From contig CBFDCL010000043.1 in the NCBI GenBank assembly GCA_965603295.1, forward strand, positions 1 through 17,537: a stretch of 17,537 bases of DNA. Direction: 5' to 3'. Under the pieces are notes generated by a model, which saw only the letters and a list, made by a program, of their open reading frames with translations, did no database searches and was not told the origin of the DNA. Each line of letters begins with the position of its first letter. Within the stretch, counting starts at the first letter, position 1. Below are positions 4,040 to 17,290 of the stretch, piece by piece. The translations under genes were made by a program, and so were the position numbers. Source of the stretch: an uncultured bacterium (GTDB taxonomy: Bacteria > BMS3Abin14).

Positions 4040-5869
4040 CTATTCCACGGTTACGCTCTTGGCCAGGTTCCTCGGTTGATCAACATCCGTTCCCTTGAGG
4101 ACAGCCACGTGATAAGCGAAGAGTTGGAGTGGTATCGTGCTCAGAATGGGGGTGAGCATCGGGTCAGTCTGGGGGATGCGGATCAGGTGGTCCGCTTTTT
4201 CCTGTAGCTGAGGGTCATCGTGATCGGCCACCGCGATAACGATCCCTCCCCTTGCCTTAACTTCCTCGATGTTGGAAAGGACCTTCTCGTAAACGCTGTC
4301 CTTCGTCGCCAGGAACAGGACGGGCATGGTTTCGTCAATAAGGGCGATGGGGCCGTGCTTCATCTCTCCCGCCGGGTACCCTTCGGCGTGGATGTAGCTG
4401 ATCTCCTTGAGTTTTAAAGCTCCTTCCAGGGCGATGGGGAAGTGGATCCCCCTCCCCAGATAGAGGAAATCGGGGTGCTGATAATAAAGACCGGCTAACT
4501 CCTCGATGGCCCCGCTGCCGCTCAGGATTTTCTCAACCTGGTGGGGCAGGGCTAGAAGGGAGTCCATGAGCCCCATGGCCTTTTGCTGGTCAAGGGTGCC
4601 GCGGCGCCTCCCAAGAAATATGGAAAGAAGGAGAAGGCAGACGATCTGGGTTGTGAACGCCTTGGTGGACGCGACCCCGATCTCCGGCCCGGCGTGGGTA
4701 TAAAGAACAGCGTCCGACTCCCTGGTGATCATGCTGCCCACAACGTTGCAGATGGATAGTACCGTGGCTTTTTTCTCACGGCACTCCCGGATGGCGGCCA
4801 GGGTGTCGGCTGTTTCACCGGACTGGCTGATCGCAACGGCCAGGGTGTTCTTGCCGATGACCGGATCACGGTAGCGGAATTCGGACCCGTAATCGACCTG
4901 CGTGGGGATCTTCGCCAGCCCCTCCAGGAGGAACTGGCCTACCAGTCCGGCATGCCAGGATGTGCCGCACGCGATAAGGGTGCACCGGTCCACATCCTGG
5001 ATGAAAGCATCCTCCAGGTGGATATCGTCCAGAGTAATGCGCCCGTTATCCTCGGAGTATCGCCCTCTCAACGTGTCGGCCAGGGCCTCGGGCTGTTCGT
5101 GGATCTCTTTCAGCATGAAATGCTTATAGCCGCCCTTTTCGGCGCCGATGGGGTCCCAGGGGACGAGAATGGGCTCCCGCTCGATTTCCCGGCCCTCCAG
5201 GTCGGTGATGCGGATTCCCTCGGCGAAGAGGGTTATCACGTCGCCATCATCGAGGTAGAGAAAACGCCGAGTATGATGCAGGACCGCGGGGATATCGGAA
5301 GCGACGAACATCTCCCCCTCACCAAAACCGACGACCATCGGGGGACCGCTGCGGGCCGCGACGAGCCTGTCCGGACAATCCGCATGGACGACGACAAGAG
5401 CGTAAACTCCGACGACTTCTTTAAGAGCCTTTCGGACAGCCTCTTCGAGGTCACCCTGGAAGTGTTCCTCAACGAGGTGGGCGATAACTTCGGTATCGGT
5501 TTCCGAGGCCATGGTGTGGCCTTTAGAAACAAGGCCCTGGCGGATGGTCCTGTAGTTTTCGACGATGCCGTTGTGAACAACCACCAGGCGTCCCGTGCAG
5601 TCGCGGTGAGGGTGGGCGTTTTCCTCGCTGGGTTTGCCATGTGTGGCCCAGCGCGTGTGACCTGCTCCCAGATGTCCCCAGAGAGGGTTTTTCCGGACAA
5701 CTTCACCCAGATCGTGGATTTTTCCGGCACTTCGGCGAAGGGCGATCTCCCCATCCCGGACCACAGCCACTCCCGCGGAATCGTAACCCCGGTACTCCAG
5801 CCGGCGGAGCCCCTCGAGAAGCACATCGGCAGCTTCCTGTTTCCCGATATAACCGACGATCCCGCACAT
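4040..5869 (-). CDS. glmS: glutamine--fructose-6-phosphate aminotransferase (isomerising)
   Basis: The true N-terminus is MCGIVGYIG, with the Cys2 nucleophile of class-II amidotransferases. Two SIS domains follow and the protein ends ...KSVTVE. The ORF-track entry 4040-6127 includes an in-frame 86-codon upstream extension with no homology. I place the start at ATG 5867-5869, with GGAGG 10 nt upstream inside the glmU 3' end. The glmU stop and glmS start overlap as TGATG. Confidence 0.9.
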   Translation of the reverse strand: MCGIVGYIGKQEAADVLLEGLRRLEYRGYDSAGVAVVRDGEIALRRSAGKIHDLGEVVRKNPLWGHLGAGHTRWATHGKPSEENAHPHRDCTGRLVVVHNGIVENYRTIRQGLVSKGHTMASETDTEVIAHLVEEHFQGDLEEAVRKALKEVVGVYALVVVHADCPDRLVAARSGPPMVVGFGEGEMFVASDIPAVLHHTRRFLYLDDGDVITLFAEGIRITDLEGREIEREPILVPWDPIGAEKGGYKHFMLKEIHEQPEALADTLRGRYSEDNGRITLDDIHLEDAFIQDVDRCTLIACGTSWHAGLVGQFLLEGLAKIPTQVDYGSEFRYRDPVIGKNTLAVAISQSGETADTLAAIRECREKKATVLSICNVVGSMITRESDAVLYTHAGPEIGVASTKAFTTQIVCLLLLSIFLGRRRGTLDQQKAMGLMDSLLALPHQVEKILSGSGAIEELAGLYYQHPDFLYLGRGIHFPIALEGALKLKEISYIHAEGYPAGEMKHGPIALIDETMPVLFLATKDSVYEKVLSNIEEVKARGGIVIAVADHDDPQLQEKADHLIRIPQTDPMLTPILSTIPLQLFAYHVAVLKGTDVDQPRNLAKSVTVE

Positions 5870-7299
5870 CAGCTTCTGTCCTCCTTTTTGCCAATAGCCA
5901 GTTTCCGGCGGCGTTCCGCCGCCCAGCCTTCTTTGGAGGACTGGCGTCCTCTTGCCACGGCTAGAGCATCCGGGGGCACGTCTTTGGTGATGGTCGAACC
6001 TGCAGCCACCAGGGATCCCTCCCCGAGAACGACAGGAGCGACAATCATGGTACCGCTGCCGACGAAAACTCCGTCCCCGATCTGCGTCCGGTGTTTGGCG
6101 AACCCGTCGTAGTTGCACGTAACACACCCGGCGCCGATATTGACGCCGCGGCCGAGCTGGGCATCCCCGATGTAAGTCAGATGGGAGACTTTGCTCCCCT
6201 CACCAATGATCGCTTCCTTCGTCTCGACGAAGTTCCCGATCCGGGCGGATGGCCCAATGTTGGATCCGGGCCTCAAATGGGAAAAAGGCCCGACCGAAGC
6301 CCCATTTTCCAACCGGGCCCCGGTGATAACACAGAAAGGGCGGATCTCCACATCCCGGCCGATAATGGTGTCGGTAATGACAGCGCTTGGCCCGATAGTG
6401 GAACCGGATCCGATTCGGGTATCCCCGTGGAGGAACGTCATGGGTCGAATCTCGGCACCCGGCTCAATTACCACCGATGCATCGATCCAGGTGTTGTCCG
6501 GGTCGAGGATCCTGACCCCGGAGTCCATGAGTGTTAGAACATGTTTTTGGTTCATTTTCGCCTCCATGGCGGCCAGTTCGCCCAGCGTATTGATCCCCCT
6601 GGCTTCATCGGGGTCCGGGGCGATGCACGTGATCACTCCCGACCCGGCAGCAACGGCGGATCTCACCAGGTCAGTGAGGTAATATTCCCCCTGGGCGTTA
6701 TCGTCGGTCAGACGGGGAATCTCCCTTTTCAGGAAGGCGGCGTCAAAGGAATAGACACCCAGGTTCACCTCGTCGATCCCCTCTTGGGTTTGGTCGAGAT
6801 CTTTTTGTTCACGGATCTCCGAAATCCGGCCCTGGCCATCTGTGAGAATCCTTCCGTAACCGGTGGGGTTTTCCAGGCGGCCCGTCAATAAAGCGACGTC
6901 GGCGCCTGCCCGGATCCTTTCCCCGGCAAGGTGAGCAAGGGTCCGGGGGCGTACGCAAGGCGTGTCCCCGGACAGGACCAGAACAGTTCCTTCAAAATCG
7001 TCCAGAGCCGGGAGACATTGGGCCACGGCGTGGCCGGTACCCAGCTGGGGGTCCTGCCTGACTGTTTCGGCTGTGATCTCTCCGGGCCATCGATGGAGGC
7101 TGCTTTCGACCTCGTCGGCCCCGTATCCGGTTACGATGATAAGCCTGACAGATCCCAGTTCCCGGATGGAATCCAGGAGATGGTGGAGGAGGGGTTTCCC
7201 TCCGAGTTTGTGAAGGACTTTCGGGACCCCGGAATTCATCCGGGTCCCCTTGCCGGCGGCAAGGACAATCACGGCGGGGATGGAGGACAGGGAAAGCAT
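5869..7299 (-). CDS. glmU: bifunctional UDP-N-acetylglucosamine pyrophosphorylase / glucosamine-1-phosphate N-acetyltransferase
   Basis: The N-terminal nucleotidyltransferase motif is VIVLAAGKGTRM. The C-terminal left-handed beta-helix hexapeptide repeats end in the acetyltransferase tail. No clear SD precedes ATG 7297-7299, so the exact start is less certain. Confidence 0.85.
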   Translation of the reverse strand: MLSLSSIPAVIVLAAGKGTRMNSGVPKVLHKLGGKPLLHHLLDSIRELGSVRLIIVTGYGADEVESSLHRWPGEITAETVRQDPQLGTGHAVAQCLPALDDFEGTVLVLSGDTPCVRPRTLAHLAGERIRAGADVALLTGRLENPTGYGRILTDGQGRISEIREQKDLDQTQEGIDEVNLGVYSFDAAFLKREIPRLTDDNAQGEYYLTDLVRSAVAAGSGVITCIAPDPDEARGINTLGELAAMEAKMNQKHVLTLMDSGVRILDPDNTWIDASVVIEPGAEIRPMTFLHGDTRIGSGSTIGPSAVITDTIIGRDVEIRPFCVITGARLENGASVGPFSHLRPGSNIGPSARIGNFVETKEAIIGEGSKVSHLTYIGDAQLGRGVNIGAGCVTCNYDGFAKHRTQIGDGVFVGSGTMIVAPVVLGEGSLVAAGSTITKDVPPDALAVARGRQSSKEGWAAERRRKLAIGKKEDRS

Positions 7300-7463: not shown

Positions 7464-7498
7464 GTTTGATGTTTGATGTTTGAAGTTTGAAGTTGCGA
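7464..7498. repeat. heptamer tandem array GTTTGAT/GTTTGAA x5
   Basis: Direct reading gives gtttgat gtttgat gtttgaa gtttgaa gttgcga. Confidence 0.9.
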
Positions 7499-7502
7499 AA
7501 TG

Positions 7503-7549
7503 GATCCAAGATCTTTAGATCCAAGATCCAAAATCCAAGATCCAAAAAA
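7503..7549. repeat. GATCCAA-type tandem array (~5 units) containing five GATC sites
   Basis: Direct reading gives gatccaa gatcttta gatccaa gatccaaaa tccaa gatccaaaaaa. Confidence 0.85.
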
Positions 7550-7554
7550 GGAAC

Positions 7555-7582
7555 GTTAAACAATAAACTTTAAACGATAAAC
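7555..7582. repeat. heptamer tandem array NNTAAAC x4
   Basis: Direct reading gives gttaaac aataaac tttaaac gataaac. The same unit family recurs at 17256-17290. Confidence 0.85.
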
Positions 7583-7593
7583 GTATATCCCCT

Positions 7594-7628
7594 CTGAACA
7601 CTGAACTCAGAACTCTGAACTCAAGATA
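7594..7628. repeat. heptamer tandem array CTGAACT x5
   Basis: Direct reading gives ctgaaca ctgaact cagaact ctgaact caagata. Confidence 0.9.
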
Positions 7629-7687
7629 ATTCCCCTCCGTGTCTCCATGTCTTCGCGTCTCCGTTTCAACCTGTTCAGGTTTACTTA

Positions 7688-7708
7688 TCACCAATCACTA
7701 ATCACCGG
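7688..7708. repeat. heptamer tandem array ATCACYA x3
   Basis: Direct reading gives atcacca atcacta atcaccg. It is related to the units at 14601-14637. Confidence 0.8.
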
Positions 7709-7717
7709 TGCTTTTTC

Positions 7718-7752
7718 TCAATTCTCAACCCTCAACCCTCAATTCTCAATTT
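7718..7752. repeat. heptamer tandem array CTCAAYY x5
   Basis: Direct reading gives ctcaatt ctcaacc ctcaacc ctcaatt ctcaatt. Confidence 0.9.
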
Positions 7753-7761
7753 TACTATTGC

Positions 7762-7791
7762 TTGGCAATTCCCTTTTTCCTCTGTTATCAT
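7762..7791 (+). promoter_or_regulatory. candidate sigma70-type promoter for the SPFH/NfeD operon
   Basis: TTGGCA (7762-7767), an 18-bp spacer, then TGnTATCAT (extended -10 at 7783-7791). This sits ~50 nt upstream of the first gene's ATG at 7840, immediately downstream of the heptamer-repeat arrays. The assignment rests on motifs only. Confidence 0.25.
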
Positions 7792-7839
7792 TTTTAACCG
7801 AAAGGAAAATACACTTAATCTCCGGCCGGGCGAGAGGTT

Positions 7840-8400
7840 ATGGAACAGAGGATTCGTCAGCTCGAAAAGGATGTCCAGAGGTTAAAGACGGCCTACGATC
7901 AGTATTTTGCCGGGGTGGAGCGCAAAGCCCCGGAAAAGCTGGCTGATAGCGTCGCCAGGGAGGTCCGTTCCCTGACCGGCACCCTGATCAACAATACGGC
8001 ATTGCGTTTCCGGGCCCAGCAGGCCATTTCCCGTTATCAGACCTATCATACTTTCTGGCAGAAAAACCTGAAGGACATCGAGGAAGGGAGAAAACCGCGG
8101 CGCCGGGTTACGGGAAGGGCGGCCGCCTCGGGGGAGAAACGTCCCCCCGGCGTCTTTGAGATATCCACCTCCAAGGTGGAAAGAGGCGAAATGGAGAAAT
8201 TTTTTTCCGCTCTGACAAAGGAATACCGCCTTGCCGGCGCGGGCAAAGTTCCCGACATGGGGCGCATACGGGAGGCGCTGGAGGAGCAGACCAGGACTAT
8301 TCGTGAGAAATACGGCTGCGAGAAGGTTGCGTTCAAAGTGGTAAACGAGGGCGGCCAGGTCAAGATAAAGGCCTCCCCGGTTGACAGGGAAAAGACATGA
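7840..8400 (+). CDS. hypothetical protein (186 aa), coiled-coil N-terminus, basic central linker
   Basis: The ORF is long, GC3-rich and codon-biased. AGAGG sits just upstream of ATG 7840. Its stop overlaps the next gene's start as ATGA (8397-8400). I recognise no family. Confidence 0.6.
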   Translation: MEQRIRQLEKDVQRLKTAYDQYFAGVERKAPEKLADSVAREVRSLTGTLINNTALRFRAQQAISRYQTYHTFWQKNLKDIEEGRKPRRRVTGRAAASGEKRPPGVFEISTSKVERGEMEKFFSALTKEYRLAGAGKVPDMGRIREALEEQTRTIREKYGCEKVAFKVVNEGGQVKIKASPVDREKT

Positions 8401-8909
8401 CGAAATCGAGAGTCGCATCGCTTTTGGAAAAGATATCCAAGATCGTCCCCGGGGTTGCGGGGTACCAGGACAGGGAACGGCGCCGGGATGCCGACAAGGC
8501 CGTTCGTAACAAGATCGTGGCGTCACTGACCCGCTGTCGGCACCGGCTTTCGAATGGGATGAGCGATATTTCCCGGGCCGGAGGGCGGGGCAGTCTGAGT
8601 GCGGTGGGGAACCTGGAAAGGGTTAATACCCGGCTCGAGCGCATTGAGGACGAGATCAGATATGCTCCCCATGGGTACGCGGGGTGGTTCGACCGTGAGG
8701 GTGTCGCCCTGGAGGACCTGGAGAGGCTTTATGAGCACGACCTGTCTCTCCTTGAGATTGCCGAAAGGATGGTTGAACTGGTCGGGCCCGTCGAGGCCCT
8801 CGGTTCCGAAAGGGACTGGATGCAGGATCTCGGGCGGGAACTGGAGGCGTTAAGACAGGCTCTTGATAACCGGATGTCCGTTATCAGGGGAGGGGAGGAA
8901 CCGCGTTGA
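8397..8909 (+). CDS. hypothetical protein (170 aa), Arg/Glu-rich predicted helical
   Basis: It is translationally coupled at both ends: ATGA with the upstream gene and TTGA with the downstream gene. I recognise no family. Confidence 0.55.
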   Translation: MTKSRVASLLEKISKIVPGVAGYQDRERRRDADKAVRNKIVASLTRCRHRLSNGMSDISRAGGRGSLSAVGNLERVNTRLERIEDEIRYAPHGYAGWFDREGVALEDLERLYEHDLSLLEIAERMVELVGPVEALGSERDWMQDLGRELEALRQALDNRMSVIRGGEEPR

Positions 8910-10042
8910 GTGAGTTCATCGAGGTCCTGGAATGGGTTGATAATACCGGCAAGGAGATGGTTCACAGGGTCCCTCTGGACGGAACAGGGGAGATCAAGTT
9001 TGGTGCCCAACTTGTGGTCAATGAGAATCAGGCGGCCGTTTTCTTCCGCGACGGAAAGGCCCTGGATGTCCTCGGGCCCGGAAGGCATACCCTGACCACG
9101 CAGAACCTGCCACTTCTCACGAAAGCCCTCAGCCTTCCCTTCAACTTCAAGAGCCCTTTCAAGGTGGCGATCTATTTCGTTTCCATGAAGACCTTTACGA
9201 ACCTCGCCTGGGGCACGCGGGATCCGGTGGCGTTCCGGGATAAGGAACTCGGGATGGTTCGCCTGAGGGGGCACGGCGTTTACACCATCCGGGTCGTTCA
9301 ACCGATGCTCTTCGTCAACGTTCTAGCGGGGACCCAGGGGATTTTCACGACAAAGGAGATCGCGGATTATCTCAGGGCGGTCATTATCTCCCGTATCAAC
9401 GACCTCCTCGGGGAGAACGTCGAATCCCTCCTGGAGCTTCCCCAGGTTTACGAGGAGCTGGGGGCCGCTGCGAAGGCCCGGGTGCGGGACGATTTCCTGA
9501 AATATGGAATTGAGTTGCGAGACCTGATCATCCGGGCGATCACCCCCCCCGATGACGTCCAAAAGATCATTGACGAGCGGGGAAGCATGACCGCTGTCGG
9601 AGAACGGGATTACCTTCGGTTCAAGGCGGCGCAGTTCATGGGGGAGGCCGGCAAGGGAGAAGGCGGAGGGTCCTCTACCGCCGAATCGGGGATGGGCCTT
9701 GGCCTGGGAGCCGGGTTCGGGATGATGGTCCCCGCTTTCCTTCGGTCCGCCATGGAAGGAAAGGATGCTTCACCGGCCCCGTCGAAAGAGACCTGTCCCC
9801 AATGCCGGGCCGGTCTTCCCGCTGACGCGAGGTTCTGTTTCCGCTGCGGGACTCCCGTTGTGAGAGGGCAGGTGTGCGCCTCATGCGGTCAGGATCTGCC
9901 CTCGGATGCGCATTTTTGCCACCGCTGCGGGCAGGAGATGAAGAAAAACAAGCCGGTCTGTTCCCATTGCGGCAACAAGGTCCCGGAAGGGGCGCACTTC
10001 TGTCTGCACTGCGGTGAGAAGATCGAGACGAGCACCCCCTGA
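8906..10042 (+). CDS. SPFH/Band-7 protein of the YdjI type (Band_7_1-like) fused to three tandem zinc ribbons
   Basis: The N-terminus MSEFIEVLEWVDNTGKEMVHRVPLDG...NENQAAVFFRDGKALDVLGPGRHTL matches the YdjI/Band_7_1 family. A Gly/Met-rich linker (GGGSSTAESGMGLGLGAGFGMM) follows. Three repeats of CxxC-x10-FCxxCG (CPQC..FCFRCG, CASC..FCHRCG, CSHC..FCLHCG) close the protein. It uses a TTG start at 8906 with GGAGG 9 nt upstream. Confidence 0.8.
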   Translation: MSEFIEVLEWVDNTGKEMVHRVPLDGTGEIKFGAQLVVNENQAAVFFRDGKALDVLGPGRHTLTTQNLPLLTKALSLPFNFKSPFKVAIYFVSMKTFTNLAWGTRDPVAFRDKELGMVRLRGHGVYTIRVVQPMLFVNVLAGTQGIFTTKEIADYLRAVIISRINDLLGENVESLLELPQVYEELGAAAKARVRDDFLKYGIELRDLIIRAITPPDDVQKIIDERGSMTAVGERDYLRFKAAQFMGEAGKGEGGGSSTAESGMGLGLGAGFGMMVPAFLRSAMEGKDASPAPSKETCPQCRAGLPADARFCFRCGTPVVRGQVCASCGQDLPSDAHFCHRCGQEMKKNKPVCSHCGNKVPEGAHFCLHCGEKIETSTP

Positions 10043-10044
10043 AG

Positions 10045-11361
10045 GTGACACAGGTCAACTACGTCAACCATTGCTGCTCCCAATGCGGCGGTGAAGTGGT
10101 TTTCGACCAGGAGGCCACCGGAACGCGCTGTCGCTACTGCGGGGCTGGTCTCATGATTCTGGGTGCCCGTTCCTCCTGGTTGAACTTTCTGCTGAAACCG
10201 GGGATCACAGTTCCGGATACCGCCCGCGAAGTGACCCGGATTGCCCAGGGAAACGGATGGAAACCTCCCCTTCTCAGATCCGTCCTGCCTTTTTATTATC
10301 CGTTTTTCAGAACCATCGGGCATGCCATCAAGTGGGTCAGGGGGGATGCTCCCGGCTCCGGGGATGGTACCGATCACGTTGAAAAGATCCTCACTCGTTA
10401 CGTCGACCTGATGCGCCCGGCTCATGCCGACCTGTCACCGGGGCTTTTTTCCCCTGGGTATCGGGCCCAGTCCCTTAACCTTTATCTCGCCACAAGGAAT
10501 AACGCGGGGAAGATCCCGTTCCTTCCCATTCAGAAAGACAGGAATGAGCACATGGGGAACATGGAGGACGATTTCTTCGACGGGATGCCGGATCCGGGGC
10601 TTCGGGTCCGGGAAAAGCGACTTTTTAAACTCTGGGAGAGAAACTCTGTCCTTTTCTTTCCCCTCTCCCTGGTGGAGATCCGTGAGGGAAGCCAGATCAG
10701 GCTCCTGTTGCTCGACGCCATCGGGGGATCTCTCATCAGGCAGATTGGCCATGAGGAGATGGAAAAACTCCTCGACAACCTGGACCTGGAAAAGAGCCGT
10801 TCCCCCGGCGAAACCCGTTTGAAACTGGCACCCCTGATCTGTCCGGAATGCGCGGGAGACCTGGACCCCGATCCCAGGGCCTTTGTCCGGTTCTGCCGTG
10901 CCTGCGGACGGGGGTGGGAACCGCTGGGGGGAAGGCTACGGGAAAGGGAGTGCCTGTGGGCGGGAGCCAAACCCCAGGCCAGGGACGCGTCGGCGATCTT
11001 TCTGCCGTTCTGGAGGAAAGAGACCGATGGGGAGGCTCTGCACATCCCCGCCTTCGAAATACGCTCTCCCCGGCTTCTTTACAACCTGTCGGTCCGGTAT
11101 TACCATGCAAACTTCCCCGCCGAGCCGATCCCTTATGAAAACAGGCTCCAAATGCGTTCTCTCCCGGCGGGCCTGCCGCCCGAAGGGGCGGATGAAATGG
11201 CGGATGTGGTGGTACAGACGGGAGCAAGGCCGGTTTCACACCCCAGGAAAGGCAGTTATGCCATTGTCCTGGTTCCGTTCTTTCGCAAGGGGCCGGATCT
11301 CGTGGAGCCGTTTCACGGGCTGGCTGTTCCCATTTCCAGCCTGGAGGTGAAGGTAGGATGA
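10045..11361 (+). CDS. hypothetical zinc-ribbon protein (438 aa) with two CxxC-x14-CxxCG modules
   Basis: A GTG start lies 2 nt after the upstream stop. The N-terminus has CSQCGGEVVFDQEATGTRCRYCG and a second module CPECAGDLDPDPRAFVRFCRACG sits near residue 247. Each module is followed by a hydrophobic LPF(Y/W) segment, which suggests an internal duplication. The stop overlaps the nfeD start as ATGA. Confidence 0.6.
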   Translation: MTQVNYVNHCCSQCGGEVVFDQEATGTRCRYCGAGLMILGARSSWLNFLLKPGITVPDTAREVTRIAQGNGWKPPLLRSVLPFYYPFFRTIGHAIKWVRGDAPGSGDGTDHVEKILTRYVDLMRPAHADLSPGLFSPGYRAQSLNLYLATRNNAGKIPFLPIQKDRNEHMGNMEDDFFDGMPDPGLRVREKRLFKLWERNSVLFFPLSLVEIREGSQIRLLLLDAIGGSLIRQIGHEEMEKLLDNLDLEKSRSPGETRLKLAPLICPECAGDLDPDPRAFVRFCRACGRGWEPLGGRLRERECLWAGAKPQARDASAIFLPFWRKETDGEALHIPAFEIRSPRLLYNLSVRYYHANFPAEPIPYENRLQMRSLPAGLPPEGADEMADVVVQTGARPVSHPRKGSYAIVLVPFFRKGPDLVEPFHGLAVPISSLEVKVG

Positions 11362-12854
11362 AAAAAACCCGACGCTTCATGATCCTGCTAATCCTCGTCT
11401 CTCTTGTTCGCATGGGTACCGGAGTCCTGGCAGAGCAGGTTTCCCCATCGGGGACGAGCGTGGTCAGGATCGTTGTGGACGGCCCTATCAGCCCGGTCAC
11501 AGCCGATTATATCGAGAGGGGGATCGAAAAAGCCCTGGAGGAGGATGCCTCTCTCCTTATTCTCGAACTGGACACACCGGGGGGCCTCATGACGTCCACG
11601 CGCCAGATCGTGAAAGCCCTCCTGGGAGCTGAAGTTCCCATTGCGGTCCACGTCGCTCCGCCAGGTGCCAGGGCGGCATCCGCGGGCGTCTTCATCACGA
11701 TGGCATCCCATGTGGCGGTTATGGCTCCCGGAACCAATATCGGGGCAGCCCACCCGGTCAACGTGGGGGGAGGGAACCCGCTGACCCCGAAGAAAGAAGA
11801 CCGGAAGGAAAATAACGGAAAGAGGAAAGAGCAAGGGGCGGAGGATTCGAAACCGAACGACGGAAAGAGTGTCTCCGGCGAAGACAAAAAAGAAGGATCA
11901 GATAAGGAGGACAAATCCGGGAAGGAAGAAAAGGAAGACGACCCGAGCGTAATGTCCCAGAAGGTCCTCAACGATGCCGTGGCTTTCGTACGGTCCATTG
12001 CCCAGAAAAGAGAACGGAACGCCGACTGGGCGGAAAAGGCTGTCCGGGAGAGTGTTTCGGTGACCGAAAGGGAGGCACTCGAGCTTAACGTGGTAGACTT
12101 CATCGCCGAGAGCACGGAAGACCTCCTCGCGGCGGTTCACGGGCGGACCGTGGAGATCGCGGGGAACGAGGTTACCCTGAATGTGGCCGATGCCAGGGTC
12201 GTGGAATATCCCATGGGCTGGAGGCACAGGGTACTCATGGCTCTTTCCGATCCCAACATCGCCTACATTCTCATGATGTTGGGGATTTACGGCCTTTTCT
12301 TCGAACTTTCCAACCCCGGGGTGATCCTTCCCGGTGTCCTGGGCTCCATTTTTCTCATCCTGGCTTTTTTCTCCTTCCAGGTGCTGCCCATCAATTACGC
12401 CGGGCTTCTTCTCATCATCGTAGCCCTTGTCCTGTTCATCCTTGAAGTGAAGGTCGTCTCCTATGGAATGCTGTCCGTGGGGGGTGCCGTTGCCCTTTTC
12501 CTGGGGAGTATTATGCTTTTTGAATCCGCAGAGCCCTACTACCGTCTTTCTTTAAAGCTGGTGGTCAGTATGACCGCCCTGACTGTCCTGTTTTTCGCGG
12601 TGATCCTTGGATTTGCCATCCGCATCCAGCGCCGGAAACCCACAACGGGTCTGGAGGGCTTGTTGGGGGAACCCGGGGTGGTAACGGTGGCCCTGAATCC
12701 CGAGGGGAAGATCAAGGTCCACGGGGAGATCTGGACGGCCTGGTCGGACAGCCCCCTTCCGAAGGGCACCCGGGTCAAGGTCACAGAGGCCGAGAGGATG
12801 AAACTGAAAGTGGTAAAAGAAACCGAAAAAGAGGTCCTAAGTCCTAAGTCCTAA
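11358..12854 (+). CDS. NfeD-family membrane-bound ClpP-class serine protease (long form, stomatin operon partner)
   Basis: A signal peptide/TM precedes the ClpP-like domain (LELDTPGGLMTSTRQI, PPGARAASAGVFI, APGTNIGAAHP). A multi-TM segment and a C-terminal OB-fold (VVTVALNPEGKIKVHGEIWTAWS) complete the protein. A ~55-aa K/E/D/G/S-rich insertion interrupts the protease domain. SD GGAGGTGAAGGTAGG precedes ATG 11358. Confidence 0.85.
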   Translation: MKKTRRFMILLILVSLVRMGTGVLAEQVSPSGTSVVRIVVDGPISPVTADYIERGIEKALEEDASLLILELDTPGGLMTSTRQIVKALLGAEVPIAVHVAPPGARAASAGVFITMASHVAVMAPGTNIGAAHPVNVGGGNPLTPKKEDRKENNGKRKEQGAEDSKPNDGKSVSGEDKKEGSDKEDKSGKEEKEDDPSVMSQKVLNDAVAFVRSIAQKRERNADWAEKAVRESVSVTEREALELNVVDFIAESTEDLLAAVHGRTVEIAGNEVTLNVADARVVEYPMGWRHRVLMALSDPNIAYILMMLGIYGLFFELSNPGVILPGVLGSIFLILAFFSFQVLPINYAGLLLIIVALVLFILEVKVVSYGMLSVGGAVALFLGSIMLFESAEPYYRLSLKLVVSMTALTVLFFAVILGFAIRIQRRKPTTGLEGLLGEPGVVTVALNPEGKIKVHGEIWTAWSDSPLPKGTRVKVTEAERMKLKVVKETEKEVLSPKS

Positions 12855-12861
12855 GTTCCAA
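12834..12861. repeat. heptamer tandem array GTCCTAA x3 plus degenerate unit, overlapping the last 6 codons and stop of nfeD
   Basis: Direct reading gives gtcctaa gtcctaa gtcctaa gttccaa. It encodes ...VLSPKS*. Confidence 0.9.
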
Positions 12862-12874
12862 GTACTTCTTATCT

Positions 12875-12908
12875 CTCAGGACTTATCGCGTAGAACTGGG
12901 TTTTTTTT
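12875..12908 (+). terminator. weak hairpin plus T8 run between nfeD and the stomatin gene (possible attenuator/terminator)
   Basis: A run of eight T at 12901-12908 follows CGCGTAGAACTGGG. Only an imperfect upstream stem can be drawn (AAGTCCTAAG/CTCAGGACTT). Confidence 0.2.
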
Positions 12909-12935
12909 ATTAACCCGTTTGTCAGGGGGTGAGCC

Positions 12936-13715
12936 ATGTTTCCGATGAGCTATTTGATAATCAGTGCGATCATCCTGGTGGTCATGTTCCTCTCTTCCGC
13001 CATCAAAATCCTGCGGGAATACGAGAGGGGTGTCGTTTTCTTCCTGGGACGCCTGGTGGGTCCCCGGGGGCCGGGGCTGGTGATCATCATCCCCGTCCTC
13101 GAGAAGTTGGTCCGCGTCAGCCTGAGACTCGTGACGATGGATGTGCCTCCGCAGGACATTATCACCAGGGACAACGTCTCTGTGAAGGTGAACGCGGTGG
13201 TCTATTTCCGGGTGATGGACCCTAACAAGGCCATCGTCGAGGTGGAGGATTTCTTCTACGCAACGAGCCAGCTGGCCCAGACAACCCTCAGGAGCGTCCT
13301 GGGTCAGGTGGAACTGGATGATCTGCTCTCGGAGAGAGAAAAGATCAACCACCAGCTGCAGGAGATCCTCGATACTGCCACCGATCCGTGGGGAGTCAAG
13401 GTTACGACGGTGGAAGTCAAGCACGTGGACCTTCCCACCGAGATGCAAAGGGCCATGGCGAAGCAGGCGGAGGCCGAAAGAGAGCGCCGGGCCAAAGTCA
13501 TCGCTGCGGAAGGGGAATTTCAGGCAGCCGACAAGCTGGGCCAGGCAGCGGCCATCATCTCCGCTCACCCGCAGGCCCTCCAGCTTCGATACCTGCAGAC
13601 CCTGGCGGAAATTGCCACGGAAAACAATTCCACCACGCTCTTTCCGATCCCCATGGACCTGATCAGCGGTTTCATGAATCTCGTCCAAGGAGGGAGCCGG
13701 AAAGAGGAAAAATAG
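12936..13715 (+). CDS. stomatin/prohibitin-like SPFH (Band 7) protein, YbbK/QmcA type
   Basis: An N-terminal TM helix precedes the SPFH core ([28 protein letters not shown]) and a coiled-coil C-terminus. The NfeD gene lies immediately upstream, which is the conserved NfeD-stomatin pair. GGGGTG precedes ATG 12936. Confidence 0.85.
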
Positions 13716-13735
13716 GGCGGGAGGCCTGAGACGCC

Positions 13736-14422
13736 ATGTCACGAATATTCGCCTCGGTTATCGCCGGATTCAGGTACGTGTTTTTCCTGGCAGTGCTGGC
13801 TTTGGCTGCCCTTTCCCTGGTTTCTCTGGTGAGGGGAATGGGGGAAATATTGTTTCTCTTCCATGGCCGCGGTCTGACCGTGGGGCCCGGGAGTGGCGTC
13901 GCCGCGGTCCACTGGTTTTTCCAGGCGTTTTTCCTGTATTTTCTCGCGGTGGCTCTCTGCTCGCTCCTGGTTGCCGAAACTCCTGTTCCCCAATGGATGG
14001 TGGTTAGAAACCTTTTCCAGTTCCGGAACAAGGTCCTGACCATCGTTTCCGTTATTCTGCCCCTGGCGTTTCTGGGAAAAGTGATGAAGGCGGACGTGTC
14101 CGGCCCTGGTCTCCTCTTTTCGGGGGGCGGTGTCTTTCTTGTCCTTGCGGGGATTTTCCTCCTGACCAGGTTCGGTTCTCCTGCAGGGGATGAGGGGATG
14201 GCCCGGGAAGGGAACCGGTCCCCTGATCGGACAGGACGAAGAGACCGGAAAACCACACACCCCGGAGGACGGGATTCCCGCAAGGACCGGAACTGGCAGG
14301 AAAAGCCGAAGGAGGATCCCTCGCGAAGAGCGGAGGGAGATCCGGATGCCTCATCCGAATTCCGGAAAAACGGCAACGTAACGGTCAAGCCGGGACCAAG
14401 AAGGCCGAGACAGCGGCGATAG
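13736..14422 (+). CDS. YqhA/UPF0114-like integral membrane protein with Arg/Asp-rich C-terminal tail
   Basis: The N-terminus MSRIFASVIAGFRYVFFLAVLALAAL resembles the YqhA family. It has 4 predicted TM helices and a ~80-aa low-complexity basic/acidic tail. GGGAGG lies 12 nt upstream of ATG 13736. Confidence 0.5.
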   Translation: MSRIFASVIAGFRYVFFLAVLALAALSLVSLVRGMGEILFLFHGRGLTVGPGSGVAAVHWFFQAFFLYFLAVALCSLLVAETPVPQWMVVRNLFQFRNKVLTIVSVILPLAFLGKVMKADVSGPGLLFSGGGVFLVLAGIFLLTRFGSPAGDEGMAREGNRSPDRTGRRDRKTTHPGGRDSRKDRNWQEKPKEDPSRRAEGDPDASSEFRKNGNVTVKPGPRRPRQRR

Positions 14423-14551: not shown

Positions 14552-14616
14552 CGTTTAACGTGGAAAACTTGTGACTTGTGATTGTTGACTGGAATATACG
14601 AATCACCAATCACCAA
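14552..14616. repeat. left copy of ~64-bp inverted repeat (built from heptamer units CTTGTGA x2-3 and AATCACC)
   Basis: cgtttaacgtggaaaacttgtgacttgtgattgttgactggaatatacgaatcaccaatcacca is ~90% identical to the reverse complement of 17207-17270. Confidence 0.85.
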
Positions 14617-14637
14617 TCACGAATCACCAATCACAAA
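14601..14637. repeat. heptamer tandem array AATCACC x5
   Basis: Direct reading gives aatcacc aatcacc aatcacg aatcacc aatcaca. Confidence 0.9.
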
Positions 14638-14660
14638 TATCTTTCAGATGGAATTTCTCC

Positions 14661-15452
14661 ATGCGGATTCATTTTGTTCATCCAAAATTCCTGAGCGATG
14701 CACTCCTTGAGGAGGAACACGATTTCCTTCACAGGCTCTTTGACGCCCTTTCGGAAGGGGAGAAGGGAAGCATAGACCACCCTGACCTTTTCCGCTACAG
14801 GGGGCGAAGGGGGCAGCTGTACATTCGCCACAGGAAGATCGCCGAAGAGTTAGGGATACGGGGCCTGCCGCACGAAACGTTCTTCGATCGCCGAAACATT
14901 GAACCGGAAGAGTGGGAGGAGCCTGGAATCTCTCCCGAGACGGTTTTTGCCGATGCGGGGGAAGTCCGGGATGCGGGTCCCGGCAGGGTGATATTGCCGG
15001 AAACGGAGAACCCCGAGGATATCGTCTGCCCGAGAGACATCTGTTCGGCCATCCCGGGCAAATTGGAGGTGGATATCCTGAGGGAACTGTGGAGGATCTA
15101 CCGGTACGTGGTTATGGAGCGATCCTATGGGCGTTATCGGTCACTGACGGACCCGGTCCAGGGGCGGGGGAAGGGGTCGGTCTGGATGCTCTTTGACCTG
15201 ATGATGGAAGAGGCGTTCGCCCAACTGCCCGAGGAACGGGCCCCGGCAATCGCCTACGAAACCATATGGGAAGCCATGCAGGGGGAGGCGACGGATGATG
15301 AGGAGAAGGAGCATGCCCGTCTTGCCGCTGCCCTCGAACCGGGGAAGGTCAGCCTGGCAATGAGACGATTTCTTGCCGCAGTTGCCGAAAGACAGGGGAA
15401 CGGGGATTTAACGGTCTCGGCGTTGCTGGTGCCTTACTTGAAGGACGATTAA
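14661..15452 (+). CDS. pyrimidine-dimer DNA glycosylase (T4 endonuclease V/DenV-like, Pyr_excise) family N-domain with acidic C-terminal extension
   Basis: The N-terminus MRIHFVHPKFLSDALLEEEHDFLHRLFDAL...GSIDHPDLFRYRG parallels the bacterial family consensus MRLWSLHPKYLD..GLVALWRE.LLA..VL.G.TKGY.NHPQL.RF. The C-terminal ~130 aa are Glu/Asp-rich and match no family I recognise. There is no SD. Confidence 0.5.
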   Translation: MRIHFVHPKFLSDALLEEEHDFLHRLFDALSEGEKGSIDHPDLFRYRGRRGQLYIRHRKIAEELGIRGLPHETFFDRRNIEPEEWEEPGISPETVFADAGEVRDAGPGRVILPETENPEDIVCPRDICSAIPGKLEVDILRELWRIYRYVVMERSYGRYRSLTDPVQGRGKGSVWMLFDLMMEEAFAQLPEERAPAIAYETIWEAMQGEATDDEEKEHARLAAALEPGKVSLAMRRFLAAVAERQGNGDLTVSALLVPYLKDD

Positions 15453-15550
15453 ATATTCAACATTCAAGATTCAAAAAAAAATCGAAAAAGGATTTTCTGG
15501 AAAAAATGAACGAGGGAGGAATGATTTTTTGAATATTGAATCTTGAATAT
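15453..15550. repeat. 26-bp imperfect inverted repeat (24/26) with 46-bp spacer; arms are heptamer arrays ATTCAAN x3
   Basis: atattcaacattcaagattcaaaaaa (15453-15478) pairs with ttttttgaatattgaatcttgaatat (15525-15550). It lies directly after the stop of the 14661-15452 gene. Confidence 0.8.
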
Positions 15551-15566
15551 GAAAATTGAAGTTGCC

Positions 15567-17136: not shown

Positions 17137-17170
17137 TCAAGGTCCTTTTTTTCTCAGAGTACAAACAGTA

Positions 17171-17198
17171 ATTTCACATTTCAAATTTCAAAATAACC
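17171..17198. repeat. heptamer tandem array ATTTCAA x3-4
   Basis: Direct reading gives atttcac atttcaa atttcaa aataacc. Confidence 0.8.
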
Positions 17199-17206
17199 AT
17201 TGGTGA

Positions 17207-17270
17207 TGAGTGATTCGTTTATTCCAGTCACCAATCACAAGTCACAAGCTTTTCACGTTTAACGTTAAAC
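17207..17270. repeat. right copy (inverted) of the ~64-bp repeat; contains TCACAAG x3
   Basis: This is the reverse-complement match to 14552-14616. It lies in the gnd-zwf spacer. Confidence 0.85.
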
Positions 17271-17290
17271 ATTAAACGTTAAACCAATAA
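17256..17290. repeat. heptamer tandem array CGTTAAA x5
   Basis: Direct reading gives cgtttaa cgttaaa cattaaa cgttaaa ccaataa. It contains GTTAAC palindromes. Confidence 0.85.

Follow-up and report, generated by a model that had tools for sequence, protein, structure and literature searches.

The operon and its products

The 17,537-nt stretch of DNA analyzed here (contig CBFDCL010000043.1 of an uncultured bacterium; hereafter, the window) carries seven co-directional plus-strand open reading frames (ORFs), between positions 7840 and 14422, which encode two different SPFH proteins together with zinc-ribbon, helical and membrane proteins. We interpret this locus, with a probability of roughly 0.6, as a genuine operon composed of two separately evolving units: unit A, a set of SPFH, zinc-ribbon and helical proteins resembling SamGHI of Bacillus, and unit B, an NfeD-stomatin pair. 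The central genes of unit A recur side by side in many phyla, and unit B adjoins them in a single lineage.

All seven genes and their junctions lie where the initial annotation had placed them. ORF1 (7840-8400) and ORF2 (8397-8909) share an ATGA overlap at 8397-8400, ORF2 and ORF3 (8906-10042) a TTGA overlap at 8906-8909, and ORF4 (10045-11361) and ORF5 (11358-12854) a further ATGA overlap at 11358-11361; ORF3 and ORF4 are separated by the 2 nt at 10043-10044, and gaps of 81 nt and 20 nt precede ORF6 (12936-13715) and ORF7 (13736-14422), respectively. Tight gene junctions are normal in operons, and the stoichiometric co-translation of a complex that had been read from these overlaps goes beyond what stop/start overlaps can show. 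Frame-specific codon bias, comparable to that of the flanking housekeeping genes, is present in all seven ORFs. A candidate sigma-70-like promoter on the plus strand (7762-7791; TTGGCA, an 18-nt spacer and TATCAT, with a TG extension), recognized by its match to the consensus only, lies 49 nt 5′ of the ORF1 start within a 540-nt divergent intergenic region, a position that fits a transcript start near 7798.

ORF3 encodes a 378-residue SPFH protein in which a Band_7_1 domain is followed by a Gly/Met-rich linker and three zinc ribbons. It scores 205.3 bits against the Band_7_1 model (PF13421; cut-off 24), aligning with positions 9-210 of the 211 in the profile; Bacillus subtilis YdjI, also called SamI, reaches 146.9 bits on the same model. 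BLASTP aligns ORF3 with YdjI/SamI over its full length, through the linker and the ribbon (E 2e-18), the query sequence having been taken from a metagenome contig that was found via a primer sequence printed in PMC8581546. The C-terminal ribbons follow the pattern CxxC-x(9-10)-CxxC and match DZR and Zn_Ribbon_1. A hydrophobicity scan detected no transmembrane segment in ORF3, where the highest value (KD19 1.35) falls in the G/M-rich linker, and none in ORF1, ORF2 or ORF4. We classify ORF3 as a cytosolic SPFH protein of the YdjI/SamI type, as the initial annotation had proposed. ORF3-like SPFH genes also occur on plasmids, in gene contexts that were uninformative.

ORF4 encodes a soluble 438-residue protein with two CxxC...CxxC ribbons, the second zinc-ribbon protein of the locus, and the eight ribbon cysteines are invariant over 46 diverse members of its family. 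The N-terminal and C-terminal halves are mutually homologous (hhalign, 97.4%), and the protein therefore appears to have arisen by tandem duplication of a unit consisting of a zinc ribbon and an alpha/beta domain. These alpha/beta domains are weakly PepSY/YpeB-like, and several relatives give faint matches to the TFIIB zinc ribbon, PF08271. The family is large: exhaustive HMMER searching with its profile gave 1,513 representatives at E<=1e-3 and, at the stricter E<=1e-10, 613. Apart from zinc-ribbon noise, ORF4 itself matches no family in Pfam or NCBIfam, ten diverse members likewise have no Pfam family, and tblastn found no match to ORF4 on plasmids.

Alignments with YdjG (SamG) of Bacillus place ORF4 closer to a known protein. 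The family profile aligns with YdjG at about 92-95% (hhalign) over the ribbon regions, and one run, at 91.9% (E 7e-7), spans the ribbon, the next helix and a 'YxPFW' strand. By hmmsearch the two match at 46 bits in three colinear segments that include the 'YxPFW' and 'PVWMV...G.TG.V' strands, and a reverse phmmer search of 6,671 ORFs from the loci described below with YdjG returned 44 matches, all of them to the ORF4 family. The analogy with Bacillus YdjI and YdjG drawn in the initial annotation is thus apt, and it extends to a product that had been set aside as unassignable: ORF4 is itself YdjG-like, at 92-94% by hhalign through the ribbon, the next helix and the strand.

The remaining two members of the upstream set are small, soluble and helical. 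ORF2, the first gene of the conserved core, encodes 170 residues and was described earlier as a small coiled-coil protein; its AlphaFold2 model (pLDDT 87.4, pTM 0.85) predicts instead a compact five-helix bundle, in which a short helix (residues 5-16) precedes a long helical hairpin. Pfam gave no match for ORF2. Against the NCBIfam family LIMLP_15305_fam it aligns over its full length at 26 bits, and its relatives in other phyla reach 32-47 bits, where the equivalog cut-off is 210; we regard ORF2 as a distant relative of this family and not a member. ORF1 encodes 186 residues with a conserved N-terminal helical region and, at its C-terminus (residues 142-181), the NCBIfam domain MXAN_5187_C (NF041621; 38.1 bits, cut-off 30); it has no Pfam match. 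Its 85 homologues all come from uncultured relatives. Both LIMLP_15305 and MXAN_5187_C are family names without known function: the papers and supplements searched label the Leptospira protein LIMLP_15305 only as 'hypothetical', and the name MXAN_5187_C was not mentioned in the literature searched. The earlier view that three products could not be assigned is right insofar as ORF1, ORF2 and ORF4 have no Pfam family, and wrong insofar as ORF1 carries a named, if uncharacterized, domain and ORF4 resembles YdjG. A paralogous relationship between ORF1 and ORF2 was considered and rejected (hhalign, 0.4%).

ORF5 and ORF6 encode a canonical NfeD1b-stomatin pair of the PH1510/PH1511 type. The 498-residue ORF5 product is a predicted NfeD1b/STOPP membrane protease with a ClpP-like N-terminal domain (NfeD1b_N, 65.6 bits, cut-off 40), a multi-span membrane domain (NfeD_membrane, 91.1 bits, cut-off 26) and a C-terminal OB domain (NfeD, 61.2 bits, cut-off 29.1), and it matches the PH1510 protease with an E-value of 6e-31. 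In a phmmer alignment to 2deo_A, Ser108 (in the motif GARAASAG) and Lys202 fall at the dyad positions of PH1510, which we take to be Ser97 and Lys138 after a numbering offset of our own reckoning. Between the catalytic-Ser segment and the Lys segment of the protease domain, residues 140-205 (11775-11970) contain a low-complexity, K/E/D-rich insert of ~60 residues that is absent from PH1510. ORF6 encodes a 259-residue stomatin of the PH1511/QmcA type, in which hydrophobic stretches at residues 1-30 and 48-67 make up an N-terminal hairpin; it scores 134.9 bits against Band_7 (PF01145) and matches human stomatin (E 5e-74), PH1511 (2e-67) and QmcA (3e-37). The Pfam, YdjI, PH1510 and stomatin matches together bear out the earlier claim that a single tight operon encodes two distinct SPFH paralogues, one of them partnered by NfeD.

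The last gene, ORF7, encodes a 228-residue protein with four predicted membrane spans and a charged tail. Its likeness to YqhA, reported in the initial annotation, extends over nearly the whole UPF0114 profile (PF03350) and stays below threshold: ORF7 reaches 20.1 bits and an orthologue in one relative (locus L096) 22.7 bits, where 23.1 is needed. Codon bias is missing from the final 79 codons of ORF7, yet the tail is kept in the L096 orthologue, which is 41% identical and occupies the same position. The gene is found in two of the six lineage loci that could be compared and is absent from L002, L003, L004 and L095. We considered whether ORF7 is spurious or specific to the window, given its absence from L002-L004 and the missing codon bias of its tail, and rejected this since the L096 orthologue conserves the tail. 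ORF7 is a real but variable accessory gene outside the conserved unit.

Conservation within and beyond the lineage

Loci from close relatives (L001-L004 and L094-L096) were compared together with the window as a lineage set (n=8), in which ORF4 identity falls as low as 50%. A second set was obtained by scanning one genome per GTDB species with the ORF4-family alignment, which yielded 80 loci outside the lineage, from Nitrospirota, Methylomirabilota/Rokubacteria, Binatia, Acidobacteriota, Chloroflexota, Dormibacterota, Ignavibacteria, Zixibacteria and others. Gene neighbors were assigned by ORF-level hidden Markov model searches and BLAST clustering.

Outside the lineage a compact core persists. 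In 67-69 of 82 loci, representing at least eight phyla, the gene directly 5′ of the ORF4-like one encodes an ORF3-like Band_7_1/zinc-ribbon protein, and most loci without this pair are truncated at contig ends. Directly 5′ of the ORF3-like gene, 34 loci of other phyla and five of the lineage's own have an ORF2-like gene. The median gaps are short, 20 nt between ORF3 and ORF4 (n=72) and 9 nt between ORF2 and ORF3 (n=34). None of the 80 outside loci has ORF1, NfeD or stomatin adjoining the core, and no conserved gene follows ORF4 in any of them. Other upstream neighbors of the core that we considered (TrpC, ArsC, a GGDEF regulator, PepSY-TM and a small lipoprotein-like protein) are each limited to one clade. 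From this pattern we take the conserved unit to be the ORF2-ORF3-ORF4 set or the ORF3-ORF4 pair. Core loci are also found in metagenome-assembled genomes labeled as Nitrosotalea (an archaeon), Enterobacteriaceae or Verrucomicrobiia (L062, L011 and L037); their sequences cluster with Methylomirabilota/Nitrospirota versions, and the labels look like mis-binning or mislabeling and not true phyletic spread.

Within the lineage the arrangement is larger. ORF1-ORF2-ORF3-ORF4-NfeD is present in all eight loci, with an apparent loss of ORF3 in L003 accounted for by a scaffold gap of 100 N, and stomatin comes next in six of the seven loci that reach that position. ORF4 and NfeD overlap in seven of eight, and in L095 are separated by a 34-nt gap. 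The flanks are syntenic throughout: upstream lie pcrA, glmS and glmU, and downstream come zwf, gnd and a gene resembling those for pyrimidine-dimer glycosylases. On this distribution ORF1 is a lineage-specific gene, and the NfeD-stomatin pair was added to the core in one lineage. The gene order of the core is thus kept well beyond this genome, as the initial annotation had required of its own reading, but the seven genes do not recur as one module, and the SPFH/zinc-ribbon core is not accompanied by an NfeD-stomatin pair outside the lineage.

One member of the lineage departs from the others. In L001, part of a closed 2.16-Mb genome (CP070682.1), the NfeD gene (11314-12302) ends after ~340 residues, without the C-terminal membrane and OB parts, and no stomatin gene lies within 10 kb; ORF1-ORF4 are intact. 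The two units may have come apart naturally here, or a rearrangement or assembly artifact may be responsible.

No Rfam family and no tRNA was found anywhere in the window. The minus strand upstream of the operon carries genes for PcrA/UvrD, a ClC channel, GlmS and GlmU. The longest GlmS ORF (4040-6127, minus strand, 695 residues) overlaps GlmU (5869-7299, minus strand) by 259 nt; in relatives GlmS has 609 residues and its start directly adjoins the stop codon of GlmU, so the true GlmS start is probably near 5866, with glmS and glmU abutting. Downstream, ORF8 (14661-15452) is followed by a G6PD gene on the minus strand. ORF8 combines an N-terminal Pyr_excise domain (pyrimidine-dimer DNA glycosylase-like; 27.8 bits) with a C-terminal region resembling DUF1722 (21.1 bits, cut-off 22.5), and within the lineage it comes after the operon in each of the six loci that extend this far. 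A repeat-rich spacer of 238 nt lies between, and ORF8 therefore probably has its own promoter.

Every sizeable intergenic region of the window contains tandem arrays with a 7-nt period (7464-7751, 12834-12856, 14567-14638, 15529-15560 and 17170-17284), built from different units (GTTTGAA, GATCCAA, AACGATA, CTCTGAA, TTCTCAA, AATCACC, TTGAATA, ACGTTAA and others). The non-coding DNA, ~1.4 kb in all, holds 13 arrays with three or more copies, and six of them fill the divergent glmU/ORF1 promoter region. Shuffling the intergenic sequence left no arrays, the one counted per shuffle lying partly in ORF5, which was not shuffled. Similar arrays of 7-8 nt with other units occur in the relative L002. 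The arrays resemble the heptanucleotide STRR repeats of heterocystous cyanobacteria.

Function of the locus and competing explanations

We consider this PspA-less locus most likely to be a relative of the membrane-stress module SamGHI of Bacillus and not a defense system, a functional reading that is inferred throughout. In the mechanism that we propose, ORF3 would oligomerize beneath the membrane, on its cytoplasmic side, into an SPFH scaffold, on which ORF4 and probably ORF2 would dock or which they would regulate through ribbon-mediated contacts; with no PspA dedicated to it, unit A would serve to organize or monitor part of the membrane during envelope stress. In unit B, the stomatin would form a membrane-anchored SPFH assembly, which NfeD would bind through its OB domain and could process. 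In this lineage the two units appear to have become a single, translationally coupled operon, with ORF1 ahead and sometimes ORF7 behind, and would thus be co-expressed; the membrane-embedded NfeD-stomatin pair may give the anchorage that YdjG and YdjH give in Bacillus.

Several findings weigh against this reading. The likeness between ORF4 and YdjG is mostly carried by the zinc ribbons: when these are removed, hhalign falls to only ~34%, and homology outside the ribbons is for this reason suggested but not proven. ORF4 also does without the C-terminal anchor of YdjG. Its highest KD19 value is 1.19, with no terminal hydrophobic segment, where the C-terminus of YdjG reaches 1.56, and the hydrophobic stretches found in 12 of 149 ORF4-family representatives are all internal. 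The other Bacillus partners are missing as well. Pfam searches gave no PspA_IM30 match in any ORF, in agreement with the earlier statement that no PspA is present, and phmmer with B. subtilis PspA found nothing in the window or in 85 loci; TPM_phosphatase likewise had no Pfam match, and phmmer with YdjH found nothing. Finally, the truncated NfeD and missing stomatin of L001, together with the absence of NfeD-stomatin from the core in all 80 loci outside the lineage, count against a tie between the two units. From these last two observations it follows that a physical complex of A and B is not required for unit A to work.

The strongest competing explanation takes up this last point. It holds that units A and B are functionally independent, that the NfeD-stomatin pair landed downstream of unit A in an ancestor of the lineage and shares its promoter, and that there is neither a dual-SPFH complex nor a shared substrate. 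The failure of the two units to co-occur outside the lineage and the intact ORF1-ORF4 of L001 are as this view would have them, and so is the 34-nt gap that replaces the overlap in L095. According to Green et al. 2009, as cited in PMC9239133, NfeD-stomatin is moreover a self-sufficient two-gene operon across prokaryotes. Against independence, the ORF4/NfeD overlap has been kept in seven of eight lineage loci even as ORF4 diverged to ~50% identity, a persistence that suggests selection for co-expression, and unit A is without a membrane anchor of its own. We regard full independence as possible but doubtful.

A different role has to be considered for ORF4, namely that of a signaling or nucleic-acid-binding protein that uses its TFIIB-type ribbons to couple gene expression to the state of the membrane, with ORF3 as the brake. 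The faint PF08271 matches within the family are in keeping with such a role, the YdjG ribbon has been called potentially DNA-binding (PMC9239133), and SamI has been proposed to restrain SamGH signaling (bioRxiv 10.64898/2026.02.06.704340). No helix-turn-helix, other DNA-binding or output domain was found in ORF4, however, ribbons of this type mostly mediate protein contacts, and the alpha/beta domains point, weakly, to PepSY/YpeB; we think this role unlikely.

The initial annotation suggested that the products of unrecognized family might substitute for PspA, in which case ORF1, ORF2 or both would be ESCRT-III-like membrane remodelers recruited by the SPFH protein. Both are small, soluble and helical and are encoded just 5′ of the YdjI-like gene, as is pspA in Bacillus, and the short helix that precedes the long helical hairpin in the ORF2 model could be read in the same sense. 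Neither protein bears the idea out in sequence: their family profiles align with B. subtilis PspA at 0.1-0.2% (hhalign), no PspA_IM30 or Snf7 match appears in Pfam even at E<=1, and a profile search of PDB sequences finds nothing. ORF1 is in addition limited to one lineage. Substitution for PspA by either protein thus seems quite improbable. An anti-phage or abortive-infection system acting on the membrane, also raised earlier, is very improbable: SPFH and zinc-ribbon genes with unknown partners sometimes sit in defense islands, which offers no direct evidence here, but none of eight proteins matches PADLOC (PADLOC-DB, E<=0.1), PHROGs gives zinc-ribbon noise only, the locus has no nuclease, NTPase, toxin or mobile-element gene, and its surroundings are stable housekeeping synteny in the lineage and ordinary metabolic or regulatory genes (trpC, arsC, glnE, a GGDEF regulator) in other phyla.

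Returning to the SamGHI-like reading, we offer one extension of it tentatively, as a conjecture that we would not expect to hold in full. ORF2-ORF3-ORF4 could constitute a distinct, PspA-independent SPFH machine of many poorly cultured phyla, a soluble Band_7_1 oligomer assembled or docked by a duplicated ribbon/PepSY-like protein and a helical-bundle adaptor. In this lineage the oligomer might in turn be docked on the NfeD-stomatin cage, giving a two-SPFH assembly, a membrane-embedded ring and a cytosolic ring, with a built-in protease.

Comparison with known SPFH systems

SPFH proteins are universal membrane organizers; within their soluble Band_7_1 branch, experiments to our knowledge concern B. 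subtilis YdjI/SamI alone, a protein linked to PspA. The individual domains encoded at this locus are already known, and the NfeD-stomatin pair is textbook. What appears to be new is ORF2-ORF3-ORF4 as a widespread operon, of which we found no description in the literature searched, its character as a PspA-less, anchor-less relative of SamGHI, and the ORF4 and ORF2 families, which have no Pfam model. Two uncharacterized families thereby acquire a gene context, and together with ORF3 they provide a defined two- or three-protein set for asking how SPFH proteins without an anchor reach and act on membranes. The fusion with NfeD-stomatin in one lineage provides a natural test of cross-talk between SPFH systems.

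Unit B is readily placed among characterized systems. Its closest counterparts are PH1510-PH1511 of Pyrococcus horikoshii and YbbJ-QmcA of Escherichia coli: ORF5 is built from the same three NfeD1b domains and keeps the positions of the Ser/Lys dyad, ORF6 is closely homologous to stomatin, and the two genes are adjacent in an order identical to that of PH1510-PH1511. The pair differs from PH1510-PH1511 in the K/E/D-rich insert of ORF5 and in being translationally coupled to an upstream SPFH/zinc-ribbon unit, an arrangement unseen outside the lineage. For the helical proteins the points of comparison are more remote: the ORF2 family aligns over its full length with LIMLP_15305 of Leptospira but lies far under the equivalog cut-off, and the C-terminus of ORF1 exceeds the domain cut-off for the C-terminal domain of MXAN_5187 of Myxococcota.

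The closest relative of unit A is the pspA-ydjGHI operon of Bacillus. YdjI/SamI is a soluble SPFH protein that is recruited to the membrane by YdjG/SamG and YdjH/SamH and is required for PspA foci (PMC8581546). In YdjG, two zinc ribbons come first, then an NTF2-like domain related to YpeB and a transmembrane segment, YdjH is a TPM-domain protein, and YdjI consists of a band-7 domain with a C-terminal zinc ribbon (PMC11237479). ORF3 and YdjI are alike in being cytosolic Band_7_1 proteins with a Gly/Met-rich low-complexity linker and C-terminal ribbons, and neither has a membrane anchor of its own. In both operons the SPFH gene is accompanied by a gene for a ribbon-first protein, YdjG or ORF4, in which TFIIB-type ribbons are followed by an alpha/beta domain, YpeB-related in YdjG and weakly YpeB/PepSY-like in ORF4. 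In contrast to Bacillus, there is no PspA and no TPM-domain YdjH at this locus; ORF4, which lacks a transmembrane segment, contains its ribbon-plus-domain unit twice, and ORF3 has three ribbons as against one in YdjI. The gene order here is helical protein, SPFH protein and ribbon protein, with ORF2 as an additional conserved helical-bundle partner, and the range is that of Nitrospirota, Methylomirabilota, Binatia, Acidobacteriota and others and not of Firmicutes. The pairing of a YdjI-like with a YdjG-like protein would accordingly be far older and wider than the Firmicutes PspA operon; it has a third conserved partner and, over most of its range, occurs without PspA, the TPM protein or a membrane anchor.

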